From Eukaryota sp. GEM-RC1 (Eukaryota), in contig JAUFOQ010000011.1 in the NCBI GenBank assembly GCA_040285855.1, forward strand, positions 186,001-212,658: a stretch of 26,658 bases of DNA. The letters are read 5' to 3'. Both the position numbers and the translations under genes were made by a program. The notes under the pieces were generated by a model. That model was not told where the DNA came from and did not search any database. It saw only the letters and a list, made by a program, of their open reading frames with translations. This document shows, in pieces, positions 2,011-26,658 of the stretch. Position 1 is the first letter of the stretch; each line of letters starts with the position of its first letter.

Positions 2011-4598
2011 ATTTGAGTTGGTTTTTCACGATGAAAACTGGTTGGGGTCTTTTGACTCGACTTGGTATTACGTTTGTAATTGATTATTTGCACTAAATAA
2101 AGGATAGAATTGTATTTTTGTAAAATTTGGAATAGTTGATGGTTATCGATTGATTGATGACCTGGTATGATTGTTGACCGTCATGGGGGTCAAAATGATT
2201 CCGATGGATTTAAGATGTACCAAAGGTATCTTTTGAATGTCGTTGTGTAACTAGTGGTGGTAGTGCAATCACAATCAAATTTAGGTCAAAACGATTTTCT
2301 CCGAGAACAGCTCATGACAGTCAATCATGTTGTACACACCGTCATGAACATCCCTTGCCCATGTTTGTATGAAGTTAGAACGGTGGAACATGTCTAGAGG
2401 CTGTGCACGAGTGTAAAGACTGGTAAAAGTGTCGAAATCGTGATTACTTAGGAGTTGAGCTCCTTTCGATACTTTTAACAATTACCAGCATAATCTATGC
2501 ATACGATAACCTAATAGTACTGTTAACAGCATCAGTTGAATTAGTTTCATCTTAACTCCAGTAGTGTTTGAATATTGGTCAAGTTCAATTGATTCTCATA
2601 CATGACTGTTGATACATTTTGATTTCTTCTTTGATACAGTTATGTCCCATACCAGTGTGCAAATGGCACGCCTACTGGTGCATGATCATATGATTGCATG
2701 AGAAAGTTTTTGTATAAGTATGTGATTTCAACTTACTACTCGTAAACTATCATGTAAAAGGGGACATTGGATTCTCTTAGTATACATTCTGTACAGCTAG
2801 TGTACACACACATTATAGTAACCCAACAGTACTGGATCGCTTCTCAAGTTGACATGGTGAATTAATTATTTTAGTCAAAATTGTTAAATTCTATCTTTCA
2901 GTGGTTACTTTGGAATTGTCTATAACTGTGCAACAGTGTTACTATGGTGGTGTTCATTAGTCATACAACAATCAAAATCATCATGAAGATCGACAAAGAG
3001 CAGTAGTATGGTCAAATTTGAAAATGAACAAAACCACTTCTACAACACTTTAAAGTTGTTTTCACATGCTCACACAAGAGTAGAACCAATATCAATGTCA
3101 AACACCAAAAGTCAATCAAAATTGTATCACAGTCAATCAAACATCATTCACATGAATTACACTCAGTCATATAACTTAAATCCAAAATATCAAAATCAAC
3201 ACCAACTAGTCCAAAAGAAACAATTAAAACAGTATATAACAACATTGGTAGATCGTTTCTACATCAACACAACACTTTTACAAACAATGACTATTACCAC
3301 TGTAATACAATGTAAACTATCAATATTGACCCTAATGGATCAACTCAAGTCTATATATTTTGAAACTTTTCACCTCAACTATAGTGTCAAACTGACCAAG
3401 TATAAAATGTTGACCAAAGTACATGTGAAAATAAAAGTCTTTGAAACTTGGTATATGTTATACCAATGGGTTGTTAACATCGTATAGATGATGTATTTGT
3501 AATATCAGTGACATTGGTTGGTAAAGTGTATGGTCTTTAGTTATTGGTAATTTTGAAGTGTACATGAAAGTTGTCAATTTCCACTTTTAACACCTTAACT
3601 GATGATCTTGAGAAGTTATATATTGGTTTGGAATCAATTTTATCTGAGTCGAATGTTTTCATTTTGACTTGGTAGTACTAGTGTATGAGTATCAAAGTGA
3701 CAAAATGAATGTTATGGATATTGAACAGTTGTACTAGTACTAGTTGTAGTATCACTGTAGTAGTGTTCACAGTGAATATTAGCTGTTGAATTAAATTCTG
3801 TGGTAAAAGTGGTCATTGGTGGATTTTGTTTTGTCAGTCCTTTGATGTCACTTTGGTTTTATTTGTTTTGATTTTATCGCAGTGTGTAGTGGTTTGATAG
3901 TTAACAAGTGTACATATTAAATTAGGTTTGTTCAAGTCAAGTTGTATATGTTTGGTATATAATGAGTATTTTGGTATTAAAATGAGTCACTTGAGCACTA
4001 GTTTTGATTATTACATAGTGGTTTAGTAAGTGTTTTTGTATAGTGTGGTTGATGTAAAATTTAAAATTCAATATGTTTGATTTCTATTTTATTACTTTAA
4101 TGTGTGTAATTGTGTTGTAATTCGTTGAGTTGGAGTTAATCGATATAGTTTTGGATTCTAATAGACAAAGTAATGATACTTATTGGATAGTATCACAATC
4201 AATCAATTTTGATTGGTACCAAGTTTTAAGCCAATATTGGTTTTACTTACTACCATGAGTTTTGTTTACGTGTTTATTCATGAATACTGGATAGTGTAGT
4301 GTGTGTACTGCTGGGTGAAGTTGCACATGGTGAGTATGAAGTTTGTGTATCTGACAGTAGTGGAATTATTAATGTTTATTAAAAGTATTACTAATATTTT
4401 ACAACAGTATTAGTTGAATTTGAATCTTTTGCTTTTGATTATACTAGTGATACTGTATGTGTGTTACTAAATGTAGTACACCTGACTTAATTTAACATTC
4501 ATTTATTATACAGTTGTAATAAGTTTTCAAAATTTTGAACCAAACATCACATAAATCACTACCCAAAGGTATAAAATAACTACCAAATAACAAACAAA

Positions 4599-4717
4599 AG
4601 AATGCAGCACTCAGTGTTCGCTTGTGGTCTCCCACCAAACTACTAACTAAGCCTTTGGCCACTTAACTTCGAATTCGGAATGGGATCCGGTGCTATGGAC
4701 CAAGTATGGCCGCATTC
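4599..4717 (-). rRNA. 5S rRNA
   Basis: Minus strand GAATGCGGCCATAC...CACCGGATCCCATTCCGAATTC(C)GAAGTTAAG...TTAGTAGTTTGGTGGGAGACCACAAGCGAACAC...GCATTC. Terminal helix GAATGC/GCATTC, about 120 nt, followed by a TTTT Pol III terminator. Confidence 0.96.
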
Positions 4718-6059
4718 ATGAGTTATATTGCGATTGTGGGTTTAAGCTTGGTGAGTACTATACTGTTGGTGTGGTAATACTAATACAATTGGTATGTGAT
4801 TTGTACTTTTGTATTGTACAGAGTCATGTTCATAGTAGTAGATAGATTGTGCATAGTGATGTTGTAACTATGATACAATGTTGATACATACTAACAATAT
4901 TGAGAAGTTGAGTCTGAACAATTATCTTGTATATGTGTGACACAGTATTATACTTTTATCAATATGGTATGCACTGGTATGTGGTGTTGTCAATGTTGTG
5001 TGATTCAAAATTTGTCTAGTTTCAAATATTATTATTAAGATGTATGTCTCACAAGTGTGGTGTAGTGATTTGGTATAGTAGTACAGATGTTTTGTCATTA
5101 ACATTTGTGATTTTGCATAGATTTATAAAACTATTGGTACAAGACATTGCTAAATATTTGACATTATTTAAAATTTGTCAAACTCAAGTAACACTGTTTT
5201 ATTCGATTATATGAAATATGAGTACTGTAAGTGGTGATTATGTATAGTGTATAGTATGTGTCATGTATCAGTGTGTGACTTGTACTTACATGTATACTAT
5301 TTGATATTGGTGTACTATTTATGTAATTGTGATTAAGACTGTGATTATCAGATAGATTTAAGTCCATGTTACATTTGATTAACTCTTTGTCATTTGATTT
5401 AGTACTATACTATGTATGTATGTAGTACTATGGTACATGTTTAGCTCTATGTGGATCTCATCTACATCACTATCATTATGATTGTGAATGTGGTGAAGGT
5501 ATGTTGTGAATCACTCTAATCAATTTTGATTGGTTTAGTGATTGTCACTGTGATTAGCTATTACTAGTATTACTAGTAAATCTACACACCAATGACTACT
5601 ATAGTACACTATGACTGTTAGTGTTGGAGATGTACATGACAATTGATCTGATTTTATGAAACTCAATTACTACAATTGATGATTGTCTAGTTGATTACAA
5701 CCACTATACCAACTAATCCATGACTCCATGTTCCAATCAAAATTGATTGAAAAATGTTTTCACTTGGTATGCTGAAACTGCCTAAAATCAGCTCAAAATG
5801 ACCCTCAATCCGTCTCTACGTGATTTTTTGAAAAGTGATTTTGATTGGTATACCAGATCTACTGAGGATCACTCAAAGTGACTGTCAATCAACGAATTTA
5901 CATGATTTTCATTAACAATCAGATTTTGACTCCCATGTAACTCCTGGCCAATCGCACTTCAACACTTCTAAATGCTTGTACGGGTACTGGGCCCTAGTAC
6001 CCTATGTAGTACTCAAGTTCCCAAAAAGGCTCTAAAAATGACCATTTGAAGGCCAATGG

Positions 6060-6146: not shown

Positions 6147-7471
6147 AAGAACTATCTAGACACCATCGTACTAGGGACTTAGTGTAGTACTCAAGACCTC
6201 TGTTACATCGTCAAAGGTACTTCATCTGAGTTCCCCACAAACCCTAAAACATGATGATCCCATTTTACATTTGTCACAAGAAGAAACTTTTATAAAAAGT
6301 TTAAACATTTCCCCAATAGGAGGCTCTGAGGCCAGGTACTAAAAGGGCGACTACTCCTCTATCACCAATGCAGTGCACCTATTATCCAAAGGCACAGGGC
6401 CCTCAAACAATAAACACAACAACACAGCGAACGAAGATGTCTAAGCGGAATTGTCCAAGATCCATTGGTTACCCAACATCTCTCAGACTATCCTCGTGCA
6501 ACCAGTTTTATGGCGTAGAAACACGGCAGATCGATAAATCAATCTACAACTAACCCTATTACAGTCCCAGTACCATGCAGGACTTACTTAAAAATTAGTC
6601 AATGACTTTCACTTAGTATCATTGACTTTGGTAGCATACAGTTGGTCGGTTACTGTTTGTAGTGTATACACAACATGTCTGTGCTTGTACCACTTTATTC
6701 TTCCCATCAAATCCATCACCAATTTCAGCACCTAAGTGCTACTGTGGTGTTGTCTTTTATGGGTAAAGTAGTCGTTGACTTGTCGATATAAAAATAATAA
6801 AGACTCGTCCTTTGACAATGTACTGCTACTACCGACAGTCAATGTCAATTAAACTCAAAAAATCTTAGTCGTTTTACGAAATTATAGTTTTCACTATTGT
6901 CTCCAACTAAGTGTATTCGAGTGTGGTACTGTCGTTTGATCCACGGCACAGACATGAACCATCAAGTACCATGGTTGAGACATGCACTAGTCACTTGACG
7001 TGCATTTGGACTGTCAGTATTAGATACCAACAGTCTTGGCTTATAGATATGATTCCAAAACAGAACCACTACAAACCTTAAGAGTATTAAGACTCTAGTT
7101 ACTACACAGGAGTCTCTACTCTTTTGTGTTATCATTGGTCTTAGTCAATGATACTTCAACCTTAGTCATTACAACCAAGGTCTAACCATCATTTATGCAA
7201 CCAGACCTAAACACACATGCATCTTATATCATCTTAGCATTTTGAATAACCAAGAATGACAAAGACACATAGTCTCAACCATCTCAACCATTAGCTACTT
7301 AGATACATACATACTTATATACAATCTTGAGCAGCTATGATCAGACTCAACTATGACTAACTCATTGTATGTTCACCACACAACGAATCAGCCAACTCTT
7401 GTTGAGTTAGCATTGAACCCCTTCCCAAGTGGTCCAATTAAAGAGAAGAGCATGTTTAACCACGCCTTCTC

Positions 7472-7864
7472 CAGAACTAGGAACATCAGATGAGCCTCAG
7501 TAACTCGTGTCAATACAACACTTGTACACGTACAGCACTGCGTTCCATATCTGAGTCGTCTACTCAGGTTCCACGCACCAGCAAGTCTTCATAGTTTCAA
7601 TGATCAATGACTAGTCTTCGACCAATCACCAATCTCACTAGTGTGATATTGGGGCGATGCAAGCACCACCCTAATCTTTATCGATTAGTTCTGCTGGACA
7701 ATATGTGGATCTTTCTAGGCTGGATACTAACTTAGAGGCGTTCAGTTATAATCCAACATACGTAGCTTCGCAGCAATGCCTTTTCAGACAACCGCATAAA
7801 CCAACTGTATGATGCAAGGGTTCCTCTCGTACTGACTTGCATTACTATTAGATCCACTAACAAT

Positions 7865-7919
<55 letters not shown>

Positions 7920-8020
7920 TTAATGGGTGAACAATCCAACGCTTTGAGAATTCTGCTTCTCAATGATAGGAAGAGCCGACATCGAAGAATCAAAAGCAAC
8001 GTCGCTATGAACGCTTGGCT

Positions 8021-8063
<43 letters not shown>

Positions 8064-8416
8064 ATCTAAAAGATCTTTATAAATAAAGGATCGTTAGGCC
8101 ACAATTTCTTGGTTTGTATTCGTACTGAAAATCAAAATCAAGTGAGCTTTTGCCCTTATACTCTACGTGAGATTTCTGTCCTCACTGAGCTCACCTTAGG
8201 ACACCTCCGTTATTATTTTGGAGATGTGCCGCCCCAGCCAAACTCCCCATCTGATAATGTCCTCAAATCCAATCACACCGAAGTGCTTAGGTCTTGAAAC
8301 AGGTAAACCTGTCTCGGATTAATTGAGTGAGCAAACCAATGTCAAGAGTCAGGGTGTTTCATTGTCGACCGAAGTCTCCCTGTACACTACACCTCCTGAA
8401 TCAGTTCACAATATCA

Positions 8417-8454
<38 letters not shown>

Positions 8455-8460
8455 GATTTA

Positions 8461-8494
<34 letters not shown>

Positions 8495-8518
8495 CTAGTA
8501 GGTAGGGACAGTGCGAAC

Positions 8519-8551
<33 letters not shown>

Positions 8552-8552
8552 G

Positions 8553-8597
<45 letters not shown>

Positions 8598-9499
8598 TGT
8601 TTACCCGTGCTTGATTGAATCTCTTCACAATGACATTCAGAGCACTGAGCAGAAATCACTTTCTGTCATCACCGTTTCCGGCCATCAGAAAGCTTTGTTT
8701 CGATTAAACAGTCGGGTTCGCTTTGTCCGTTACAGTTCTAGGTTGATCTTTAATTGCACAGAAGTTATCCCAACAGGTCCAGCTTTGCCAACAGCCCAGA
8801 GTTGCCTCCAAGCCATCGACTCCACCTTCACTGCCAGGGCCTCCATACAAGACCCTAGAGCCAATCCTTATCCCGAAGTTACGGATCTATTTTGCCGACT
8901 TCCCTTACCTACATTATGCTATTGACCAGAGGCTACACACCTTGGAGACCTGATGCGGTTATCGGTACGGACATTGATGAAGTACTCGCCCCTAGATTTT
9001 CAAGGGCCGTGAAAGATACACCAGACACTACAATTAAGCAGTGCTCTTTCCGCGTTACCTCCATTTCTCCAGCTAAGCTGATTCCATGGACGCTACACAG
9101 TTAATAAGAAAAGATAACTCTTCCTGGGATCCTTCCCGGCATCTCTAAGTTTGATTGTGTTACCACTGCACACCCATCAATGGTGCAGGAATATTAACCT
9201 GCTTCCCTTTCCACGTGATAGGACATAAATGCCCTCTCCTAAGAGTTAACCCGCGTGTTAGGACCGACTAACCCATGGCAGAATACCTTTACCATGGAAC
9301 CCTACTCCACTTCGGTCAACAAGATTCTAACTTGTTTATTTGCTACTACCACCAAGATCTGTACTGGAGGCTGCTCCAGTCCACCTCACGATGAACCTTC
9401 AACGCAACCCCACACCTCCTACACATTGAGGCATCAAATACCTCAATGGACATGTATAGGTGGCATACTTTAGCGCCATCAATTTTCAGGGCTAGTTGA

Positions 9500-9533
<34 letters not shown>

Positions 9534-10371
9534 ATTCCGACTTCCATGGCCACCGTCCTGCTGTCAATATCAACCAACACCTTTTTGGGGTCTAAATGAG
9601 TACACACTTAGGCACCTTAACATGTCTTTGGAGCATCCCACATCGCCAGTTCTGCTTACCAAAATGGCCCACTTAGAACTCATATTCAAACGCCACAATC
9701 ACAAAAGTATTGCAGAGTGTCTTGCCCATTTAAAGTTTGAGAATAGGCTAAGAGCATTGCGCCCCTAGTACCTCTAATCATTAGCTTTACCGGACAAAAC
9801 TAACACGAGCTCCAGCTATCCTGGGGAAACTTCGGGAGGAACCAGCTACTAGCCGCTTCGATGAGTCTTTCGCCCTATACCCAAATTCGACGAGTGATTT
9901 GCACGTCAACATCGCTGCGGACTTCCACCAGAATTTCTCCTGGCTTCATCCTACTCAGGCATAGTTCAGCGGCTTTCGGGTCGTATCCGTACTGCTCATA
10001 CGCGGATCTCTTTACAAGAACCGGTTGGAGTTGCAAGCCGAAGCCATCACTCCATGAAATTACTTTCATTGCGCGTCTCGGGTTTTCCACCCTAACACTC
10101 GCATATATGTTAGACTCCTTGGTCCGTGTTTCAAGACGGGACAGTTGGACCCTTTATATTGGAGTCTCGGCCGAAGCCGTATACCTGCCTCCAGAAGAAT
10201 GTCAATGCCAAGGCTATAACACCACTAACAACCGAAGTCATCAATGGCTACCTTCCTTAACACATTCAAACTCCCAAAGGCACTCCAATTCCGACAACCG
10301 AAGCTGTCTACTGTGGGGGCCAACCGCTTATCCTATTAGTGATTTCAGGTACTTTTAACTCTCTCTTCAGA

Positions 10372-10402
<31 letters not shown>

Positions 10403-10745
10403 GAACTATCGGTCTCCAACTATATTTAGCTTTACGGGAATCTTACCCGCATTTAACGCTGCATTTCCAAACAGCGCGACTCTCGGAACACCAACGGTGA
10501 TTCAGTCATTCGATGTCATGTACGGGATTTTCACCCTCCACGATACCCTTTTCCAAGGGTTTGTACACCGAGGACCAAACGCTGGAGTCCTTAGACCACA
10601 TGTCGTCACAGCCAAAAGGCCATGAAGATTTAGTCTTGAGCTTTTTCCTGTTCGTTCGCCACTACTAAGGAAATCATAGTTATTTTCTTTTCCTCCCTTA
10701 TTGATATGCTTAAGTCCAGGGGTACTCCTACTTGAAATCAGGCCA
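7472..10745 (-). rRNA. 28S (LSU) rRNA, uninterrupted
   Basis: 5' motif ACTTAAGCATATCAATAAG, R2-site region CTCTTAAGGTAGCCAAATGCCTCGTCA, peptidyl-transferase motif GGTTTAGACCGTCGTGAGACAGGTTAG, sarcin-ricin loop AGTACGAGAGGAAC. Ends approximate. Confidence 0.97.
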
Positions 10746-10910
10746 TTTTAATGGTTAGGACCGAGATCCTCAACTACACATCAGTAAATAATCAAGCTAT
10801 TGCAAAGTTGCCTTCAACAACAGTAATGACCATCAACAGTCAGTACAGAAGATGTATTTAAGATCAGAAGATATACTTCAAACCCAATCAACCCGAAGGT
10901 TAAAGTGCAT
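10746..10910 (-). other. ITS2 (~165 bp)
   Basis: Spacer between the 5.8S 3' end and the 28S 5' end. Confidence 0.85.
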
Positions 10911-11073
10911 ACGACACTGATTCAAGTATACCCTAACAACGCCGAAGCATTGAAAGGGTGCCATGTGCGTTCAAAATTTCGATGTTTCACAGGTTCTGCA
11001 ATTCGCATTACGTATCGCATTTCGCTGCGTTCTTCATCGATCTTGGAGCCGAGACATCCATCACTAAGAGTCT
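10911..11073 (-). rRNA. 5.8S rRNA
   Basis: Minus strand contains GATCGATGAAGAACGCAGCGAAATGCGATACGTAATGCGAATTGCAGAA and TTTGAACGCA. Confidence 0.97.
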
Positions 11074-11191
11074 TTTAATTTCAAACACTGTAAACAGCGT
11101 CTAAAAGGTTTTAAATTTTATAATAAATGAATTGGTTCGTTATTAAGGTTAAGTTATAGTGAAGCTCAACTTGCGTCAAGCAACACGTCGA
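11074..11191 (-). other. ITS1 (~118 bp)
   Basis: AT-rich spacer between the 18S 3' end (GGATCATTG) and 5.8S. Confidence 0.87.
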
Positions 11192-11325
11192 CAATGATCC
11201 ATCCGCAGGTTCACCTACGGATACCTTGTTACGACTTCTCCTTCCTCTAAATAGTAAGATTCACCCAATTTTCCCACCAGACCTTGCTTTGCAGCTTGAT
11301 CCAGCGAGTCCAAAGGTTTCACCTC

Positions 11326-11377
<52 letters not shown>

Positions 11378-11823
11378 TTCAGTGCATGCTGATGACATGC
11401 ACTTACAAGTTATTCCTCGTTCAAGACCCATAATTGCAAGGGTCTATCCCAGTCAAGACAGACATTCTCAAGATTACCCAAACTTTTCAGTTAAGGACAA
11501 ACTCGTTGAATCTGCCATTGTAGCGCGTGCGGCCCAGAACATCTAAGGGCATCACAGACCTGTTATTGCCTAAACCTTCCTCTGTGTAAAACCACAGCAG
11601 TCTCGCTAAGAAGAACAACCTATCCGAAAATAAGCTATCCTATTTAGCGACTTAGATCTCGTTCGTTATCGGAATTAACCAGACAAATCACTCCACCAAC
11701 TAAGAACGGCCATGCACCACTAACCGTAAGATCATGAAAGAGCTATCAATCTGTCAATCCTCCCTGTGTCCGGACCTGGTGAGTTTCTCCGTGTTGAGTC
11801 AGATTAAGCCGCAGGCTCCACAA

Positions 11824-11879
<56 letters not shown>

Positions 11880-12967
11880 GTTACCCAAGAACTTATGGTT
11901 TCCCATAAGGTGCTCAGAGGGTCGTATGTTAACGCCTCCAAATCCCTAGTCGGCATAGTTTATGGTTGAGACTACGACGGTGTCTAATCGTCTTCGATCC
12001 CCAACTTTCGACCTTGATTAATGAGAACATCTTTGGCAAATGCTTTCGCAGTAGTTAGTCATCCGGCAATCCAAGAATTTCACCTCTGACACCGGAGTAC
12101 TAATGCCCCAACTGTCCCTTTTAATCATTACTCTAGTCCTCAAAACCAATAAAACAGAACCAAAGTCCTATTCCATTATTCCATGCTAAGTTATTCAATT
12201 GCATAAAGCCTGCTTTGAACACTCTAATTTTTCAAAGTAAACGGTCTAAATTCAATAACCACCGCCGAAGCAAATGATCATTGTCCTTAGACTTAAGAGC
12301 TTGCCATCCAACAGGTTAGACCCATCGGACAACAAACTCTGACTTTCAACTACGGACGATTTAAACGCAGCAATTTTAAGATACACTACTAGAGCTGGAA
12401 TTACCGCGGCTGCTGGCACCAGACTTGCCCTCTAGTAGCTCCTCGTTAAAGGTTTTAAGTTGTACTCATTCCAATTACGAACTCAAAAGAGCCCAGTATT
12501 GTTATTTTTGTCACTACCTCCTCGTGTTGAGATTGGGTAATTTTCGCGCCTGCTGCCTTCCTTGGATGTGGTAGCCGTTTCTCAGGCTCCCTCTCCGGAA
12601 TCAAACCCTAATTCCCCGTTACCCGTCATAACCACCGTAAGCCACTACCTTACGGTTTAGTTGATAGGGCAGTGATTTAAGCGATATGTCGCCGTCCGAA
12701 GACATGCGATCAGCATAGTTATTATGAATCACCAAAGACCTGTTGCCAGGATTGGTTTTGTATCTAATAAATGCATCACTGTTGCCAATGATTGAGTGCA
12801 TGTATTAGCTCTAGAATTACCACGGTTATCCAAGTAGTAAGTACTATCGCATAAATTATCACTGATTTAATGAGCCATTCGCAGTTTCGGAGAAAACTCC
12901 TGAACTTAGACATGCATGGCTTAATCTTTGAGACAAGCATATGCCTACTGGCAGGATCAACCAGGTA
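11192..12967 (-). rRNA. 18S rRNA, complete (~1776 nt, no intron)
   Basis: Runs from TACCTGGTTGATCCTGCCAG to GTAGGTGAACCTGCGGATGGATCATT and includes TTGTACACACCGCCCGTC. Confidence 0.99.
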
Positions 12968-13492
12968 TCATCAGTGATAGCCAATCATCTTGCGACGACT
13001 GACTTCAAAGCTATGACATCCTATTTTAAATCAACCATCAGATGGTCGATTCGTGTTGATCATTTGATCTTTTCACATGTCCCAACTAGTAGCCTGATAA
13101 CCACTAATCGTTCCATATGATGTACCTATAGATAGATTGCATGAACTTCAATTCATCTTCTTTCAGTACAGTGGGTGCATTCAAACCTTAATGTTTCCAT
13201 CTTGGCTTTCGTACAACACCATTTTGTTACCAAAGTAACAGGGGTCATTCGAACAAAATCCAATACAACATTGATAAACATTGTAAAAGAGACCATGTAA
13301 GAAGACATGGCTTTAGTATACCTAACCGAAATCAGAATTACTCTGACATCTGAGAGAGGTACACCCTACATATATGCCAAGTTTTTCATTTATATACCCT
13401 TTTACCAACAATGACTCGGATGACCATACCTAAATAGCTCAAATCCGCAATAAAATGGTCCCAAAAACTTTCAAAAAATCAGAAAAACTTGT

Positions 13493-13565
13493 AACTTTTC
13501 TGGGGCCAAAAGTTCCGGAACTTTTCTGGGGTAGGGGCCAAAAAGTTTGGAACTTTTCTGGGGTC
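13493..13565. repeat. AACTTTTCTGG subrepeats / palindrome, copy 2
   Basis: Same motif cluster as 1939-2010. Confidence 0.7.
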
Positions 13566-16160
13566 ATTTGAGTTGGTTTTTCACGATGAAAACTGGTTGG
13601 GGTCTTTTGACTCGACTTGGTATTACGTTTGTAATTGATTATTTGCACTAAATAAAGGATAGAATTGTATTTTTGTAAAAATTTGGAAATAGTTGATGGT
13701 TATCGATTGATTGATGACCTGGTATGATTGTTGACCGTCATGGGGGTCAAAATGATTCCGATGGATTTAAGATGTACCAAAGGTATCTTTTGAATGTCGT
13801 TGTGTAACTAGTGGTGGTAGTGCAATCACAATCAAATTTAGGTCAAAACGATTTTCTCCGAGAACAGCTCATGACAGTCAATCATGTTGTACACACCGTC
13901 ATGAACATCCCTTGCCCATGTTTGTATGAAGTTAGAACGGTGGAACATGTCTAGAGGCTGTGCACGAGTGTAAAGACTGGTAAAAGTGTCGAAATCGTGA
14001 TTACTTAGGAGTTGAGCTCCTTTCGATACTTTTAACAATTACCAGCATAATCTATGCATACGATAACCTAATAGTACTGTTAACAGCATCAGTTGAATTA
14101 GTTTCATCTTAACTCCAGTAGTGTTTGAATATTGGTCAAGTTCAATTGATTCTCATACATGACTGTTGATACATTTTGATTTCTTCTTTGATACAGTTAT
14201 GTCCCATACCAGTGTGCAAATGGCACGCCTACTGGTGCATGATCATATGATTGCATGAGAAAGTTTTTGTATAAGTATGTGATTTCAACTTACTACTCGT
14301 AAACTATCATGTAAAGGGGACATGGATTCTCTTAGTATACATTCTGTACAGCTAGTGTACACACACATTATAGTAACCCAACAGTACTGGATCGCTTCTC
14401 AAGTTGACATGGTGAATTAATTATTTTAGTCAAAATTGTTAAATTCTATCTTTCAGTGGTTACTTTGGAATTGTCTATAACTGTGCAACAGTGTTACTAT
14501 GGTGGTGTTCATTAGTCATACAACAATCAAAATCATCATGAAGATCGACAAAGAGCAGTAGTATGGTCAAATTTGAAAATGAACAAAACCACTTCTACAA
14601 CACTTTAAAGTTGTTTTCACATGCTCACACAAGAGTAGAACCAATATCAATGTCAAACACCAAAGTCAATCAAAATTGTATCACAGTCAATCAAACATCA
14701 TTCACATGAATTACACTCAGTCATATAACTTAAATCCAAAATATCAAAATCAACACCAACTAGTCCAAAAGAAACAATTAAAACAGTATATAACAACATT
14801 GGTAGATCGTTTCTACATCAACACAACACTTTTACAAACAATGACTATTACCACTGTAATACAATGTAAACTATCAATATTGACCCTAATGGATCAACTC
14901 AAGTCTATATATTTTTGAAACTTTTCACCTCAACTATAGTGTCAAACTGACCAAGTATAAAATGTTGACCAAAGTACATGTGAAAAATAAAAGTCTTTGA
15001 AACTTGGTATATATTATACCAATGTGTGGTTAACATCGTATAGATGATGTATTTGTAATATCAGTGACATTGGTTGGTAAAGTGTATGGTCTTTAGTTAT
15101 TGGTAATTTTGAAGTGTACATGAAAGTTGTCAATTTCCACTTTTAACACCTTAACTGATGATCTTGAGAAGTTATATATTGGTTTGGAATCAATTTTATC
15201 TGAGTCGAATGTTTTCATTTTGACTTGGTAGTACTAGTGTATGAGTATCAAAGTGACAAAATGAATGTTATGGATATTGAACAGTTGTACTAGTACTAGT
15301 TGTAGTATCACTGTAGTAGTGTTCACAGTGAATATTAGCTGTTGAATTAAATTCTGTGGTAAAAGTGGTCATTGGTGGATTTTGTTTTGTCAGTCCTTTG
15401 ATGTCACTTTGGTTTTATTTGTTTTAATTTTATCGCAGTGTGTAGTGGTTTGATAGTTAACAAGTGTACATATTAAATTAGGTTTGTTCAAGTCAAGTTG
15501 TATATGTTTGGTATATAATGAGTATTTTGGTATTAAAAATGAGTCACTTGAACACTAGTTTTGATTATTACATAGTGGTTTAGTAAGTGTTTTTGTATAG
15601 TGTGGTTGATGTAAAAATTTAAAATTCAATATGTTTGATTTCTATTTTTATTACTTTAATGTGTGTAATTGTGTTGTAATTCGTTGAGTTGGAGTTAATC
15701 GATATAGTTTTGGATTCTAATAGACAAAGTAATGATACTTATTGGATAGTATCACAATCAATCAATTTTGATTGGTACCAAGTTTTAAGCCCAATATTGG
15801 TTTTACTTACTACCATGAGTTTTGTTTACGTGTTTATTCATGAATACTGGATAGTGTAGTGTGTGTACTGCTGGGTGAAGTTACACATGGTGAGTATGAA
15901 GTTTGTGTATCTGACAGTAGTGGAATTATTAATGTTTATTTAAAGTATTACTAATATTTTACAACAGTATTAGTTGAATTTGAATCTCTTGCTTTTGATT
16001 ATACTAGTGATACTGTATGTGTGTTACTAAATGTAGTACACCTATGACTTAATTTAACATTCATTTATTATACAGTTGTAATAAGTTTTCAAAATTTTGA
16101 ACCAAACATCACATAAATCACTACCCAAAGGTATAAAATAACTACCAAATAACAAACAAA

Positions 16161-16280
16161 AGAATGCAGCACTCAGTGTTCGCTTGTGGTCTCCCACCAA
16201 ACTACTAACTAAGCCTTTGGCCACTTAACTTCGGAATTCGGAATGGGATCCGGTGCTATGGACCAAGTATGGCCGCATTC
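16161..16280 (-). rRNA. 5S rRNA, copy 2
   Basis: 120 nt, matches 4599-4717 apart from one indel, followed by a T-run on the minus strand. Confidence 0.96.
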
Positions 16281-17636
16281 ATGAGTTATATTGCGATTGT
16301 GGGTTTAAGCTTGGTGAGTACTATACTGTTGGTGTGGTAATACTAATACAATTGGTATGTGATTTGTACTTTTGTATTGTACAGAGTCATGTTCATAGTA
16401 GTAGATAGATTGTGCATAGTGATGTTGTAACTATGATACAATGTTGATACATACTAACAATATTGAGAAGTTGAGTCTGAACAATTATCTTGTATATGTG
16501 TGACACAGTATTATACTTTTATCAATATGTTATACACTAGTATGTGGTGTTGTCAATGTTGTGTGATTCAAAATTTGTCTAGTTTCAAATATTATTATTA
16601 AGATGTATGTCTCACAAGTGTGGTGTAGTGATTTGGTATAGTAGTACAGATGTTTTGTCATTAACATTTGTGATTTTGCATAGATTTATAAAACTATTGG
16701 TACAAGACGGTGCTAAATATTTGACATTATTTAAAATTTGTCAAACTCAAGTAACACTGTTTTATTCGATTATATATGAATATGAGTACTGTAAGTGGTG
16801 ATTATGTATAGTGTATAGTATGTGTCATGTATCAGTGTGTGACTTGTACTTACATGTATAAGTCTATTTGATATTGGTGTACTATTTATGTAATTGTGAT
16901 TAAGACTGTGATTATCAGATAGATTTAAGTCCATCAGTTACATTTGATTAACTCTTTGTCATTTGATTTAGTACTATACTATGTATGTATGTAGTACTAT
17001 GGTACATGTTTAGCTCTATGTGGATCTCATCTACATCACTATCATTATGATTGTGAATGTGGTGAAGGTATGTTGTGAATCACTCTAATCAATTTTGATT
17101 GGTTTAGTGATTGTCACTGTGATTAGCTATTACTAGTATTACTAGTAAATCTACACACCAATGACTACTATAGTACACTATGACTGTTAGTGTTGGAGAT
17201 GTACATGACAATTGATCTGATTTTATGAAACTCAATTACTACAATTGATGATTGTCTAGTTGATTACAACCACTATACCAACTAATCTACGACTCCCATG
17301 TTCCAATCAAAATTGATCGAAAAATGTTTTCACTTGGTATGCTGAAACTGCCTAAAATCAGCTCAAAATGACCCTCAATCCGTCTCTCTACGTGATTTTT
17401 GAAAAGTGATTTTGATTGGTATACCAGATCTACTGAGGATCACCTCAAAGTGACTGTCAATCAACGAATTTACATGATTTTCATTAACAATCAGATTTTG
17501 ACTCCCATGTAACTCCTGGCCAATCGCACTTCAACACTTCTAAATGCTTGTACACGTCATGTACTGGGCCCTAGTACCCTATGTAGTACTCCAAGTTCCC
17601 AAAAAGGCTCTAAAAATGACCATTTGAAGGCCAATG

Positions 17637-19033: not shown

Positions 19034-19061
19034 GAGAAGGCATGTTTAACCACGCCTTCTC
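19034..19061 (-). other. Hairpin immediately 3' of 28S (candidate 3' ETS processing stem)
   Basis: Minus strand GAGAAGGCGUG-GUUAAA-CAUGCCUUCUC forms an 11-bp stem with one G-U pair. The role is inferred. Confidence 0.5.
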
Positions 19062-19459
19062 CAGAACTAGGAACATCAGATGAGCCTCAGTAACTCGTGT
19101 CAATACAACACTTGTACACGTACAGCACTGCGTTCCATATCTGAGTCGTCTACTCAGGTTCCACGCACCAGCAAGTCTTCATAGTTTCAATGATCAATGA
19201 CTAGTCTTCGACCAATCACCAATCTCACTAGTGTGATATTGGGGCGATGCAAGCACCACCCTAATCTTTATCGATTAGTTCTGCTGGACAATATGTGGAT
19301 CTTTCTAGGCTGGATACTAACTTAGAGGCGTTCAGTTATAATCCAACATACGTAGCTTCGCAGCAATGCCTTTTCAGACAACCGCATAAACCAACTGTAT
19401 GATGCAAGGGTTCCTCTCGTACTGACTTGCATTACTATTAGATCCACTAACAATCAGTA
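19062..19459 (-). pseudogene. 28S rRNA 3' fragment (~400 bp) downstream of the retroelement; upstream 28S absent from this unit
   Basis: Matches 7472-7869. Homology stops after caatcagta, where the intact gene continues gggtaaaac. Confidence 0.95.
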
Positions 19460-19612
19460 TTTATATACGGTATAATTAAACCTAAAGTAAATAAAACTAT
19501 TTGAAACATTTAACTAAATTTGAAATAACATAGTCAAGCTGGATAATTAAAATATACAATTGAATTCAGTAAAACATTTTTCAAATAAAACATTTGGACA
19601 ATAACTGGTCCG

Positions 19613-22600
19613 TCAACCCAGTTGATTATCAGTGACGATGTTCTTATAAGCCAAGTAGTTCCTAATGGAATCTTTGACAACTGTACAATGAAGTTCAGCT
19701 GTCTTGGCTTCCAACTTAAATGTTTTTAAAAATTTTAAAAATTCTGGTGAAAATCCACCAGACGTGAAACAAATAAGTGGTTGAACATTTTCAAATAAAT
19801 GTTGATACTTCTCAATTTTGCTCTTTCAGCATTTCTAACACAAATTGAGAGTTCTTTGTAGGAACCACCCACAATTCTTAAATCATAAGCAGTATTACCA
19901 CTTACAATATCAGGTCTAAGATTATTACCTTCAACCTTGGCTTCAACATTTAAATTTGAATTTTGGGCTATGATTTTAAGTACTTCATCATGCCTCTGGA
20001 TTCTTAGTTTGTTTGTATTACTACAATTAAAGGCATGAAAGGTCCTAGAACCCTTCTCCTTACAAACCAAGCAACGTCCTCTGTTGTCAGCCTCTCAGTT
20101 AAAGGTAAAAGCAAATGAGCTGACAGGTAAATTGAAAAATAATCATTAGAAAAGTATAAATCCTCTTCTCAGGAACACATGTGAGAAGCATCTTGCTTTT
20201 CTGAGTAAACAGTTGATCAATATCATGATCAGCAAGGGATATTGTTGTCTAATAAATTGAAAAGAGTCAATTGATTTCTCTACAAAATTTTTTAGATAGA
20301 AATTTTTGACAACCTTTCATTTCACTGGGACGAACAAAATCTATTCCAGTATCCTTTGAGTATAAAAACTCTTCAACTGAAGATGAAATAGAGTGAACTA
20401 AATCAGCATTGAAATACTCAGGATCATTTAATAAATAATTATTAATCGTCACAAAGACGAAGCCAATGACGAAGTAAAAGCCAAGTGGTTAATCTCAGCA
20501 TAGTTGGTTAAGCCCAACCCACCTTGAGCAATTGGTAAAGAAATTAAAAATTTAAACTCAATTTGACGATCCAATCGTCGTTCTAACTCAGTAGAAATTG
20601 AATTAAAAAATTAAAAAATGATTAGTGGTAACACTTGGCTCACAAGTTCTTGCAAGCCAATTAATTTTAGTATTGATACACTCTTTAATCAACAAGAGTG
20701 CATTTTGAAACGATAAAGATGAAGTTAAGCTAATTGATCTCGCAATCGAACTAACTTTATCACCAATAAACGAATCAATATCGTTACCAACAAACCCACC
20801 AAGAGCTTCACCAGGATTGTTTAAAGTAAGTATCTCACACTTACTTTCATTAATTTTAAGATTAAATTGAAAAACTCTTCAGAAAATAAATTTAAAACAT
20901 TATCCAAGTCTTTTTGACGTTTTGTTAAAACAAAGATGTCATCTAGATATGCAAAACAGCAATATCAGGAAAAGTACTTCGAATTTTACAAATTGTTGGG
21001 TGAATACCCAAAAAAAGATAAGAAGACATTGATCTCCTTGACGCACTCTAGATTGCGAGGAGATAATGAAATTTTGATAGATCTGCTCAGAAGAAATTCC
21101 ATAAGCGAAATTAAAGAATCTATGAAATTTTGAATTTTTTAAAGATGAAATAAATACTGACGGGAGATAGGGCGTTCTCCACGTCAATTTTCAGGCATTT
21201 TGAAAACTGGCCTGATTTTAAAGTCTCATTAATAATATGAATAATGGACTCAGCCCCAGATTCTACCTTAACGCCAAGTTGGCCAGCTAAGGCAAGATCT
21301 GAGCTGTCAATAGTTAAGGCCAAAGCCTTTGAAGTAATTTTATAAAAGAGTTCTGGGACACAAATGGGTCGAATTTTGGTCCCAGCCTCGTTTTGAATTG
21401 GCACTAAACGTGACGAAGTCAACGCTTTGTGCAACTCCCGAGGAACAGAATTACTCAGAACTAAAGTAGATAAGTTAAATAAAAATTTAATAAAATTAGG
21501 TTTTAAAGAATGAGAAATAAGTTCGGTGTTCCAAAGAGAAACACCACCTTCTGAGGTTTTAGAAATCGAAGCAAAGGACGCTTCAACTTCTGCTAGCGTA
21601 ATGCCAGCTGGAACATTATTATTTTTAATAAAAGTTTTTGAGATTCAGGATTCATATCCTTTAACTTATTATAAATCTCATCTGGAGATAAAGAAATAGC
21701 AGTCTGTGGACTAGATAACAGAGCAAAGGCTTTAGATTTTCGTTAGCCTTGATAAGGTAATCCACTTTTTAATTCTGTTTTAAGGTTAAATTTGGGTACA
21801 GAATTAATATCATCAACTACTAATGGAAGAGAAATTTGAGAAAAATTGTTTCAACGAAATGTGGTTAAAACATAAAAGGAAAGGGAAGAACAAAATGTTT
21901 TAAAAGTAGTAACTACATCCAAATTCTTTTAAGTAATAACAACTTGGGTAGCAACAACAGATACATACAAACAGATGTAACATCCATATCAGCATTAAAC
22001 AAAGAATCCAAAATTGAATTAAAATGAAAAGAACCTTTAACACGCCGATATTTAACAAATTTCAATTTGTCCCAAAGCAATTGAAGACTTTAGGAGGAAT
22101 AGGACAAATCTTAACATTGTCATTGATGTTCTTGCACGAAGCAAGATGCATCTTAATACCTTTCCTAGTGACAATCCTAGGACAGTGAGCACATCTCACT
22201 AAATCAAACTGGACAAGGTCTTCTCCAGTGACTGCAAACATATGACAGTCGTTAATATGTGTTATAAACTTGTTTAACACCTTAAAACTTTTATGACAAC
22301 CATGAACAAAACAGTGATACTGATTATCATAGAACAACTTCCTACCCATGTCTACGTCCAAAGTAAACATTTGTGCAGCTTCTGCCTCAGAATCTTCCAT
22401 GTTGACATCTTCTTGAATATTATCAAGACTTGAACTGTTGACATCAGAATTGATTGATTCTCTGTTATCAGAAACATTTGAATCGGTACAAATCTGTTCG
22501 TCTTCCAGATTAATCTCAACAATGTCGTCAGAGTTATCTTGGGACAACTCTGTAGGAGGAGGAGAAGATGGAGGAGGAGGAGAATGAGGAGAAGATGGAG

Positions 22601-23017
22601 AAATAGGAGGAGAAATAGGAGAAATAGGAGGAGAAACTGGGGAAGTTTCCGTCAAAGCAGGAAGTTGCTGGTCATCAACAGAGCTCAAGGCGTTCTCTTG
22701 GGGAATACAGGAGGACATTTAGAACCATTCCGTTCCTTCTGTGTTCTATGCATATCAAACCTTTTACAGATACAACATCACCACATCCGCAGCGAGTGAA
22801 TCCGTTCTCGGAAAGTTGCAAAGAAGTCACATCAGGGTGAAACTTGACAATATGGCGACAGAACGCCTGTCTATCCTTATATAACCTGTCACATCCCAAG
22901 AAACACATAATATGAGAGGTTACTCTAGAATTTATTGGAGAGCTACTCTGCGAACAAGAAACTACCTTTCGAGAAGAAGATTGCTCCTCAACTCCGGTAT
23001 CATTCACATCTTCAGCC
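19613..23017 (-). CDS. Retrotransposon polyprotein (~1100 aa if frameshifts are corrected): zinc fingers, reverse transcriptase, CCHC knuckle, PD-(D/E)xK endonuclease. Broken by several frameshifts in this sequence
   Basis: Motifs in order across frames: CFLGC..H..H, CFVHGC..H..H, CAHC..H..C, RLVPI..KIRPI, QLGVKVESGAESIIH, KIDVENA, VRQGD (~21032-21046), FAYLDDI (~20935-20955), LGGFVG, SLPIAQGGLGL (~20510-20542), CLVC..HAFNC, RHDEV, LRPDI, YDL, K..KY. Stop TGA at 19613-19615. Confidence 0.9.
22554..22643. repeat. Purine-rich (GGA/GGAGAAATA)n low-complexity tract encoding a Ser/Pro linker
   Basis: Minus-strand translation SPVSPPISPISPPISPSSPHSPPPPSSPPP. Confidence 0.85.
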
Positions 23018-25635
23018 TTGTAACTATGATACAATGTTGATACATACTAACAATATTGAGAAGTTGAGTCTGACCAATTATCTTGTATATGTGTGACACA
23101 GTATTACACTTTTATCAATATGTTATACACTAGTATGTGGTGTTGTCAATGTTGTGTGATTCAAAATTTGTCTAGTTTCAAACATTATTATTAAGATGTA
23201 TGTCTCACAAGTGTGGTGTAGTGATTTGGTATAGTAGTACAGATGTTTTGTCATTAACATTTGTGATTTTGCATAGATTTATAAAACTATTGGTACAAGA
23301 CATTGCTAAATATTTGACATTATTTAAAATTTGTCAAACTCAAGTAACACTGTTTTATTCGATTTGATGTGAATATGAGTACTGTAAGTGGTGATTATGT
23401 ATAGTGTATAGTATGTGTCATGTATCAGTGTGTGACTTGTACTTACATGTATAAGTCTATTTGATATTGGTGTACTATTTATGTAATTGTGATTAAGACT
23501 GTGATTATCAGATAGATTTAAGTCCATCAGTTACATTTGATTAACTCTTTGTCATTTGATTTAGTACTATACTATGTATGTATGTAGTACTATGGTACAT
23601 GTTTAGCTCTATGTGGATCTCATCTACATCACTATCATTATGATTGTGAATGTGGTGAAGGTATGTTGTGAATCACTCTAATCAATTTTGATTGGTTTAG
23701 TGATTGTCACTGTGATTAGCTATTACTAGTATTACTAGTAAATCTACACACCAATGACTACTATAGTACACTATGACTGTTAGTGTTGGAGATGTACATG
23801 ACAATTGATCTGATTTTATGAAACTCCAATTACTACAATTGATGATTGTCTAGTTGATTACAACCACTATACCAACTAATCTACGACTCCCATGTTCCAA
23901 TCAAAATTGATCGAAAAATGTTTTCACTTGGTATGCTGAAACTGCCTAAAATCAGCTCAAAATGACCCTCAATCCGTCTCTCTACGTGATTTTTGAAAAG
24001 TGATTTTGATTGGTATACCAGATCTACTGAGGATCACCTCAAAGTGACTGTCAATCAACGAATTTACATGATTTTCATTAACAATCAGATTTTGACTCCC
24101 ATGTAACTCCTGGCCAATCGCACTTCAACACTTCTAAATGCTTGTACACGTCATGTACTGGGCCCTAGTACCTATGTAGTACTCCAAGTTCCCAAAAAGG
24201 CTCTAAAAATGACCATTTGAAGGTGGGTATTACGTTTACAAAATTGTCTCCAACTCGAGCCGCCAAGTACATCACGCGGCTCCTGAGTTACAATTTTGTA
24301 AACGCAATCCAGACTAGTCTAGACACCATCGTACTAGGGACTTAGTGTAGTACTCAAGACCTCTGTTACGACGTCAAAGGTACTTCATCTGAGTTCCCCA
24401 CAAACCCCTAATCCATGATGATCCCAATTTACATTTGTCACAAGAAGAAACTTTCTTTAAAAAGTTTAAACATTTCCCCAGTAGGAGGCTCTGAGGCCAG
24501 GTACTAAAAGGGCGACTACTCCTCTATCACCAATGCAGTGCACCTACCATCCAAAGGCACAGGGCCCTCAAACAATAAACACAACAACACAGCGAACGAA
24601 GATGTCTAGCGGAATTGTCTAAGATCCATTGGTTACCCAACATCTCTCAGACTATCCTCGTGCAACCAGTTTTATGGCGTAGAAACACGGCAGATCGATA
24701 AATCAATCTACAACTAACCCTATTACAGTCCCAGTACCATGCAGGACTTACTTAAAAAATAGTCAATGACTTTCACTTAGTATCATTGACTTTGGTAGCA
24801 TACAGTTGGTCGGTTACTGTTTGTAGTGTATACACAACATGTCTGTGCTTGTACCACTTTATTCTTCCCATCAAATCCATCACCAATTTCAGCACCTTAG
24901 TGCTACTGTGGTGTTGTCTTTATGGGTAAAGTAGTCGTTGACTTGTCGATATAAAAATAATAAAGACTCGTCCTTTGACAATGTACTGCTACTACCGACA
25001 GTCAATGTCAATTAAACTCAAAAATCTTAGTCGTTTTTACGAAATTTATAGTTTTCACTATTGTTTCCTACTAAGTGTATTCGAGGTGTGGTACTGTCGT
25101 TTGATCCACGGCACATACATGAACCATCAAGTACCATGGTTGAGACATGCACTAGTCACTTGGACGTGCATTTGGACTGTCAGTATTAGATACCAACAGT
25201 CTTGGCTTATAGATATGATTCCAAAACAGAACCACTACAAACCTTAAGAGTATTAAGACTCTAGTTACTACACAGTCTCTACTCTTTGGTGTGTTATCAT
25301 TGGTCTTAGTCAATGATACTTCAACCTAGTCATTACAACCAAGGTCTAACCATCATTTATGCAACCAGACCTAAACACACATGCATCTTATATCATCTTA
25401 GCATTTTGAATAACCAAGAATGACAAAGACACATAGTCTCAACCATCTCAACCATTAGCTACTTAGATACATACATACTTATATACAATCTTGAGCAACT
25501 ATGATCGGACTCAACTATGACTAACTCATTGTATGTTCACCACACAACGAATCAGCCAACTCTTGTTGAGTTAGCATTGAACCCCTTCCTAGTGGTCCAA
25601 TTAAAGAGAGAAGACATGTTTAACCACGTCTTCTC
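23018..25635. other. Partial IGS (copy 3), lacking the 5S gene and the promoter-side half
   Basis: Matches 4862-7471 and 16425-19061. Begins ttgtaactatgatacaatg directly after element sequence. Confidence 0.93.
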
Positions 25636-26027
25636 AGAACTAGGAACATCAGATGAGCCTCAGTAACTCGTGTCAATACAACACTTGTACGTACAGCACT
25701 GCGTTCCATATCTGAGTCGTCTACTCAGGTTCCACGCACCAACAAGTCTTCATAGTTTCAATGATCAATGACTAGTCTTCGACCAATCACCAATCTCACT
25801 AGTGTGATATTGGGGCGATGCAAGCACCACCCTAATCTTTTTCGATTAGTTCTGCTGGACAATATGTGGATCTTTCTAGGCTGGATACTAACTTAGAGGC
25901 GTTCAGTTATAATCCAACATACGTAGCTTCGCAGCAATGCCTTTTCAGACAACCATAAACCAACTGTATGATGCAAGGTTCCTCTCGTACTGACTTGCAT
26001 TACTATTAGATCCACTAACAATCAGTA
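25636..26027 (-). pseudogene. 28S rRNA 3' fragment downstream of the second element copy
   Basis: Matches 7472-7869, with the same breakpoint caatcagta|tttat. Confidence 0.93.
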
Positions 26028-26658
26028 TTTATAAACGGTATAATTAAACCTAAAGTAAATAAAACTATTTGAAACATTTAACTAAATTTGAAATAACACA
26101 GTCAAGCTGGTTAATTAAAATATACAATTGAATTCAGTAAAACATTTTTCAAATAAAACGTTTGGATAATAACTGGTCCGTTAACCCAGTTGATTATCAG
26201 TGACGATGTTCTTATAAGCCAAGTAGTTCCTAATGGAATCTTTGACAACTGTACAATGAAGTTCAGCTGTCTTGGCTTCCAACTTAAATGTTTTTAAAAA
26301 TTTTAAAAATTCTGGTGAAAATCCACCAGACGTGAAACAAATAAGTGGTTGAACATTTTCAAATAAATGTTGATACTTCTCAATTTTGCTCTTTTCAGCA
26401 TTTCTAACACAAATTGAGAGTTCTTTGTAGGAACCACCCACAATTCTTAAATCATAAGCAGTATTACCACTTACAATATCAGGTCTAAGATTATTACCTT
26501 CAACCTTGGCTTCAACATTTAAATTTGAATTTTGGGCTATGATTTTAAGTACTTCATCATGCCTCTGATTCTTAGTTTGTTTGTATTACTACAATTAAAG
26601 GCATGAAAGGTCCTAGAACCCTCTCCTTACAAACCAAGCAACGTCCTCTGTTGTCAGC
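26028..26658 (-). mobile_element. Second copy (B) of the retrotransposon, 3' end only (runs off the window)
   Basis: Aligns to 19460-20090 with an identical 28S junction. Confidence 0.93.
26181..26658 (-). CDS. C-terminal CCHC/RLE part of the copy B polyprotein (partial, with indels)
   Basis: RHDEV, LRPDI, AEKSKIEKY ... TDNQLG, then TAA at 26181-26183. Confidence 0.85.

Follow-up and report, generated by a model that had tools for sequence, protein, structure and literature searches.

A probably intact CRE-like retrotransposon at a non-R2 site of a protist 28S rRNA gene

Two copies of a retrotransposon lie side by side in the ribosomal DNA (rDNA) of Eukaryota sp. GEM-RC1, and their position raises the question of whether an element outside R2 specifically targets a single base of the 28S gene. 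The window, i.e. the whole stretch of 26,658 nucleotides of contig JAUFOQ010000011.1 that was analysed, gave a real, probably intact, CRE-like retrotransposon with a restriction-like endonuclease (RLE) at a non-R2 site of this protist 28S gene. That the element specifically targets one skoliomonad 28S base was given a probability of about 0.65; the evidence for it is a pair of junctions that may be related, plus a single indirect clue. By the match to GEM-RC1 gene models, the host, an anaerobic protist, is Skoliomonas sp. GEM-RC or very closely related to it; the accessible part of PMC11316075 describes a free-living metamonad.

Along the minus strand, the order of parts in the window was copy B (last 631 nt), a 28S tail, spacer, copy A and a second 28S tail, and then spacer with 5S, 18S, 5.8S, an intact 28S gene, spacer with 5S, and 18S. 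Copy A (19460..23017; 3558 bp; boundaries by self-BLAST and by tblastn of P0001 and P0002) was in the rRNA orientation. Copy B (26028..26658) was cut by the window end to its 3' 631 nt, and its last 128 residues were those of P0001 and P0002. Remnants of the 28S 3' end lay downstream of copy A (19061..19459) and, together with spacer, between copies B and A (23018..26027; remnant at 25636-26027). By sequence comparison, the intact 28S gene (7471..10745) had both its target (7869/7870) and its R2 motif (8565-8576) empty. The rDNA unit was about 11.56 kb long, and two 5S genes (16161..16280 and 4599-4717) lay inside the rDNA spacer, on the strand shared with 18S and 28S.

In the rRNA sense (minus strand), each copy terminated in ...TATAAA, and TACTGATTGTTAG came immediately after it, the junction being 19459/19460 for copy A and 26027/26028 for copy B; the uninserted 28S gene at 7869/7870 read TTTTACCC^TACTGAT. 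Alignment to the annotated E. coli 23S put the junction at the equivalent of 2616/2617, the last upstream base being 2616. The R2 motif was uninterrupted, and the LSU positions of the two sites (2175 for R2 and 2876 for the element) were 701 nt apart. The first-pass annotation had claimed two copies joined to 28S at the same base, an empty site at 7869/7870, the E. coli 2616/2617 placement and a distance of about 700 bp downstream of the R2 site; the 3' junctions agreed (2/2), and the coordinates, the placement and the distance held. Insertion was thus not at the R2-clade target TTAAGG^TAGCCA, and the site differed from those of R2 and planarian LIN9, LIN24 and LIN26 in a comparison of readable published targets. 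Both visible 3' flanks were 28S and not a spliced-leader or telomeric target of the CRE type, which does not exclude CRE membership because targets vary within the CRE group. The 28S target sequence is presumably conserved in human.

The element protein, encoded on the minus strand, began with a first zinc-finger pair (22756..22905; 43% identity to residues 421-473 of P0192), followed by a Pro/Ser-rich and acidic linker (22370..22718; translation and Pfam) with no RNase H, unlike the relatives P0037 and P0223. A second pair of fingers (CCHH and CCHC-like; 22140..22313) was read from the translation, with the motif found by eye and a weak match to skoliomonad relatives. The reverse transcriptase (RT; 20800..21640; Pfam RVT_1 E 5.5e-24 on P0002) had small deletions relative to P0002 in the frame-break map; QLGV..GAESIIH (about 21240-21281) and AYLDD (about 20938-20952), which the earlier annotation had reported, were both present in translation. 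A CCHC knuckle and nuclease (19616..20073) followed as C-x2-C-x8-H-x3-C-x9-RHD-x14-E-x8-RPD-x8-D, identified from motif match, near-invariant columns and fold match to R2 structures. The stop codon and a 153-nt AT-rich 3' untranslated region (UTR) with three final A and no long poly(A) closed the element (19460..19615). A non-LTR RT followed in one ORF by CCHC and a PD-(D/E)xK-like nuclease is the layout of RLE non-LTR elements (R2 group sensu lato), and the translations gave two pairs of N-terminal C2H2 zinc fingers as in the CRE type. The residues of the CRE-type nuclease motif CCHC-RHD/N..E..R/KPD..D/E were present with spacings below the published ones; the motif is not CRE-diagnostic, because its loose form fits R2 too. 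No Pfam match to a Myb domain was found after the zinc fingers, where the pre-RT region was frame-broken and skipped in the gene model, and weak Pfam and PDB matches above E 0.04 were taken as chance. Folding of the 3' UTR was no better than that of shuffles (z -0.03 and -0.20), and Rfam found no ribozyme in 19300-23400.

The element protein was about 99% identical to Eukaryota sp. GEM-RC1 gene models, and among longer proteins the RT piece matched one only, a gene model of the same organism in a cluster that includes P0001 and P0002. These two had 4 differences in 600, and the near-identical gene models P0001, P0002 and P0035 sat on two large contigs. Compared with P0002, copy A had 16 frame events, of which 14 were short codons, but no more than 2 mismatched residues in 600, each of them at or beside an alignment break. 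With frame events accompanied by so few mismatches, the breaks in copy A look like long-read deletion errors and not decay, and the sequence suggests that the element family is probably intact. Copy A itself was likely 5'-truncated, since the relatives P0192 and P0194 have about 250 more residues ahead of the first finger. The predicted model of P0002 had a mean pLDDT of 78, with the N-terminal 190 residues mostly unreliable; over its whole length it matched R2 proteins best among solved structures (E 2e-18 to 4e-14, 14-16% identity) and LINE-1 more poorly.

RT profile coverage of at least 80% was reached by 187 of 341 proteins and locus ORFs; 88 were hand-picked for a quick tree and 47 for a careful tree (46 of the 187 plus P0223). 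Tree rows were picked by likeness to the query and included no named CRE, Genie, NeSL, R4 or HERO sequence; R2 was represented by three references, P0214 (E 7e-162 to R2Bm) and two loci whose ends lie at the R2 site, L028 and L030; the outgroup label 'APE' came from Pfam for three rows and from tree position for six. Five skoliomonad families formed one RT clade (support 98/95), nested in a 34-row clade (100/100) that also took in a protein of Kwoniella and the loci L006 and L007, and the three R2s fell outside. Loci L006 and L007 adjoined TAACCC repeats, and Kwoniella is close to Cryptococcus, the host of Cnl1; we infer CRE identity for the Kwoniella protein and the TAACCC-flanked loci. Forcing the skoliomonad set together with the three R2s was rejected (p-AU 9e-10), for a grouping that was defined once the first tree was known. 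The RT motif was YLDD in the element vs. YADD or FADD in the three R2s, and P0002 matched the solved R2 proteins at E 1e-5, compared with 1e-162 for the true R2 P0214. The RT tree and the AU test supported the earlier claim of an RLE-type non-LTR element that is not R2. The claim that its RT is nearer to the CRE clade than to R2 stood in that the R2 grouping was rejected and the clade was CRE-like; on a tree of this composition the RT is best described as CRE-like, with strict CRE membership possible. Loci L028, L030, L006 and L007, eukaryotic R2s or telomere-repeat-flanked retrotransposons, had been binned into bacterial metagenome-assembled genomes.

Compared with R2 and the retargeted R8 and R9, the element likewise had RT and RLE in one ORF, lay in 28S in the sense orientation, joined it precisely at the 3' end and had a similar predicted fold; it differed from R2 in a site further 3' and an RT on a separate branch. 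Anopheles RT1 and RT2 (R1 clade) presumably insert near the element site, at a point that lies about 630 nt past the R1 site and roughly 700 nt downstream of that of R2. They have an APE endonuclease, two ORFs and a 17 bp target duplication; their proteins are unrelated to the element, and a shared site would therefore be convergence. Their site may be close to the element site, which may therefore already be described. The CRE group (CRE1/2, SLACS, CZAR, Cnl1, MoTeR and FoTeR), as presented in the available text of PMC12857005, has C2H2 N-terminal fingers, an RT and a C-terminal CCHC-RHD-RPD nuclease, as does the element, whose tree neighbours include the Kwoniella protein and the telomere-repeat-flanked loci. 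CRE group targets are spliced-leader genes and telomeric repeats in the accessible portions of PMC3636483 and PMC7367193, whereas the element target is 28S. Spacings after RHD were 14 and 8 residues in the element vs. 19-33 and 12-14 for the CRE group in the available text, a comparison with published values. The planarian NeSL-clade elements R5/LIN9, LIN24 and LIN26 are RLE elements that, as is likely for the present one, reached 28S independently of R2; in the accessible part of PMC4640811, LIN9, LIN24 and LIN26 are antisense, whereas the element is sense, the LIN9 target is 179 nt upstream of the element site, and LIN24 and LIN26 targets are upstream of the R2 site, with that of the element downstream. 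Utopia, in the same part of PMC4640811, resembles it as a protist RLE element of a multicopy RNA gene with tandem arrays and missing 5' gene fragments, and some Utopia carry RNase H before the RT, as do the Skoliomonas litria relatives; Utopia differs in its target, U2 snRNA, and in belonging to the NeSL clade.

The 5' end of copy A (junction 23017..23018) abutted intergenic spacer and not 28S, a join that the first-pass annotation had missed, and this spacer was intact-unit sequence up to 145 bp upstream of 5S. Relative to an inserted whole unit, about 8.55 kb was absent (size from coordinates 7870-16424), comprising 5S, the second spacer, 18S, 5.8S and the 5' 2.9 kb of 28S. The window, with 631 nt only of copy B, contained no 28S 5' junction and no target duplication. 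As the 5' end of copy A joins spacer, the element, 28S tail and spacer make up a tandem unit of 6.6 kb whose head-to-tail repeats are spaced 6568-6594 bp apart; the two 3' junctions are therefore perhaps not independent and may descend from one insertion. Most simply, the 5' junction of copy A is the scar of an 8.55 kb deletion that arose as the element inserted or later, and that brought two adjacent, inserted rDNA units together. An identical join would result if the RT had jumped templates onto a read-through transcript, or from an assembly error. By eye, no likeness of the spacer breakpoint to the 28S target was evident.

Copies A and B differed by 6 substitutions over 633 aligned columns, all within the last 155 nt (6/155 vs. 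0/478 coding nt; Fisher p 0.0002); five were in the 3' UTR and one was a TGA/TAA swap of the stop codon. The flanking 28S and spacer blocks had 37/3043 differences, and the element 3' end was more diverged (p 0.013-0.016), in tests that, like the Fisher test, were picked after the pattern was seen. Two 3' UTR variants therefore sit on one 28S base, which as a sequence pattern gives modest support to repeated insertion. Overall divergence between the copies (6/633, about 1%) resembled the divergence between spacer copies, which differed at 21-37 of about 3040 positions. The zero synonymous changes in 478 coding nt were unlike the prediction of long independent descent and suggest recombination or polishing mosaics; either recombination or assembly polishing could be the source of the 3' UTR mosaic.

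Sister families gave a further, indirect indication. The first 42 residues of P0184, of a second GEM-RC1 family, were antisense 28S (window 8916-9041, 97.6%; 28S positions 1705-1830) and were followed by RT, the sole such case in 246 proteins checked. This second family is therefore also near 28S, in the opposite orientation. Two S. litria families had RNase H ahead of the RT (P0037 75-209 and P0223 140-280; Pfam PF00075). P0190 had a degenerate-looking stretch at that place, with no Pfam match. Consecutive locus tags (P0190, P0191 and P0192; P0036 with P0189) and a fused gene model indicated that in S. litria two element families lie next to or within one another; locus-tag spacing of relatives was dropped as a clue to chromosome-end location, being ambiguous.

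The same data were weighed against three other explanations. A single insertion by an element of weak or other specificity, with deletion of its 5' flank and amplification of a 6.6 kb piece by unequal crossing-over in the rDNA array, would account for the head-to-tail unit, for there being two junctions only and for an A/B divergence no different from that of spacer copies. It is unlikely, yet the strongest of the competitors; substitutions clustered within 155 nt of the junction beyond the flank rate, the coding sequence was near-intact and P0184 also lay beside 28S. Less probable still is that the tandem array and the spacer junction are an assembly or chimeric-read artefact in a collapsed repeat, with copy B re-rendering the insertion of copy A and the element being real: the dense small deletions in the element and the indels between rDNA copies suggest poorly polished long reads, but the A/B substitutions were non-random, the stop swap included, and the join was clean, the spacer being exact right to the breakpoint. 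An R2-clade element with a shifted 28S target, as in R8 and R9, would share the sense orientation in 28S and the best solved-structure matches, which among the matches were to the sole solved RLE proteins; it is contradicted by the AU test, by YLDD and by the gap in E values between P0002 and P0214, and is very improbable.

Specific targeting of one 28S base by a CRE-like element thus remained the favoured reading. By analogy with R2-group biology, the nuclease would nick the bottom strand at the 2616/2617 equivalent, the freed 3'-OH would prime cDNA synthesis on the 3' UTR of the element RNA, and the N-terminal zinc fingers may recognise flanking DNA; the element may also be co-transcribed by RNA polymerase I, as it is in the rRNA sense. 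Because the retrotransposon branch is separate from that of R2, rDNA targeting likely evolved independently of R2, although two neighbouring copies cannot prove constant insertion there. A wider proposal is tentative and falls somewhat short of even odds: at least five CRE-like families of skoliomonads would have invaded rDNA independently of R2, at differing 28S sites and orientations, some with RNase H and one cutting beside the peptidyl-transferase centre, in a stretch that eukaryotes have in common.

In the accessible parts of the literature examined, rDNA-targeting RLE elements (R2, R4, R5/LIN, R8 and R9) were all from animals, R2 was reported in animals only (PMC5035012), and no R2 had been found in unicellular organisms (PMC13188248). 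The wider proposal, if true, would extend RLE elements that target rDNA to a deep-branching eukaryote outside the animals. With a CRE-like rDNA element in a metamonad, rDNA targeting would have arisen independently once more, which would bear on the question of whether inserting site-specifically into multicopy RNA genes is an ancestral non-LTR habit. R2 proteins are under engineering for gene insertion at one rDNA site, and differently folded DNA-reading fingers with a second conserved 28S site would offer a new starting point. Should specificity fail, the element would still represent a protist retrotransposon family that is new and has inserted once in rDNA.

No description of this element or 28S site was found in the literature searched, the scope of which lay outside Repbase and Fell et al. 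2025; the latter survey contains many CRE elements, according to the available text of PMC13580325, and may bear on novelty. The accessible parts of PMC13188248, PMC13580325, PMC12857005, PMC7367193, PMC3636483, PMC7650587, PMC8869645, PMC3315735, PMC6319322, PMC4300560 and PMC13586686 contained no CRE-type rDNA element and not this site, and that of the host paper (PMC11316075) did not mention rDNA or the element. Among 34 related loci from prokaryote assemblies, rRNA flanks were found in two, both R2, and in none of the CRE-like loci; many of their contigs end at the element edge, and flanked repeat DNA of eukaryotes is scarce in the collections searched. A pattern scan of viral contigs for this 28S junction gave no match, and none of 27 viral stretches matching the related-locus pattern was confirmed. 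The pattern scan of metagenome contigs for non-28S sequence at this site gave five matches and no element junction: two were chance matches in coding DNA and three were LSU genes with short extra sequence. These LSU genes (L002 948-995, L003 1313-1360 and L004 1050-1100) carried additional sequence of about 40 and about 15 bases at the element's 28S site, with TACTG on either side, as in an expansion segment or an insertion footprint. A 216-residue ORF carrying His-Cys motifs also interrupted the LSU gene of L004, near sense position 4500-5150; it is probably the homing endonuclease of a group I intron.
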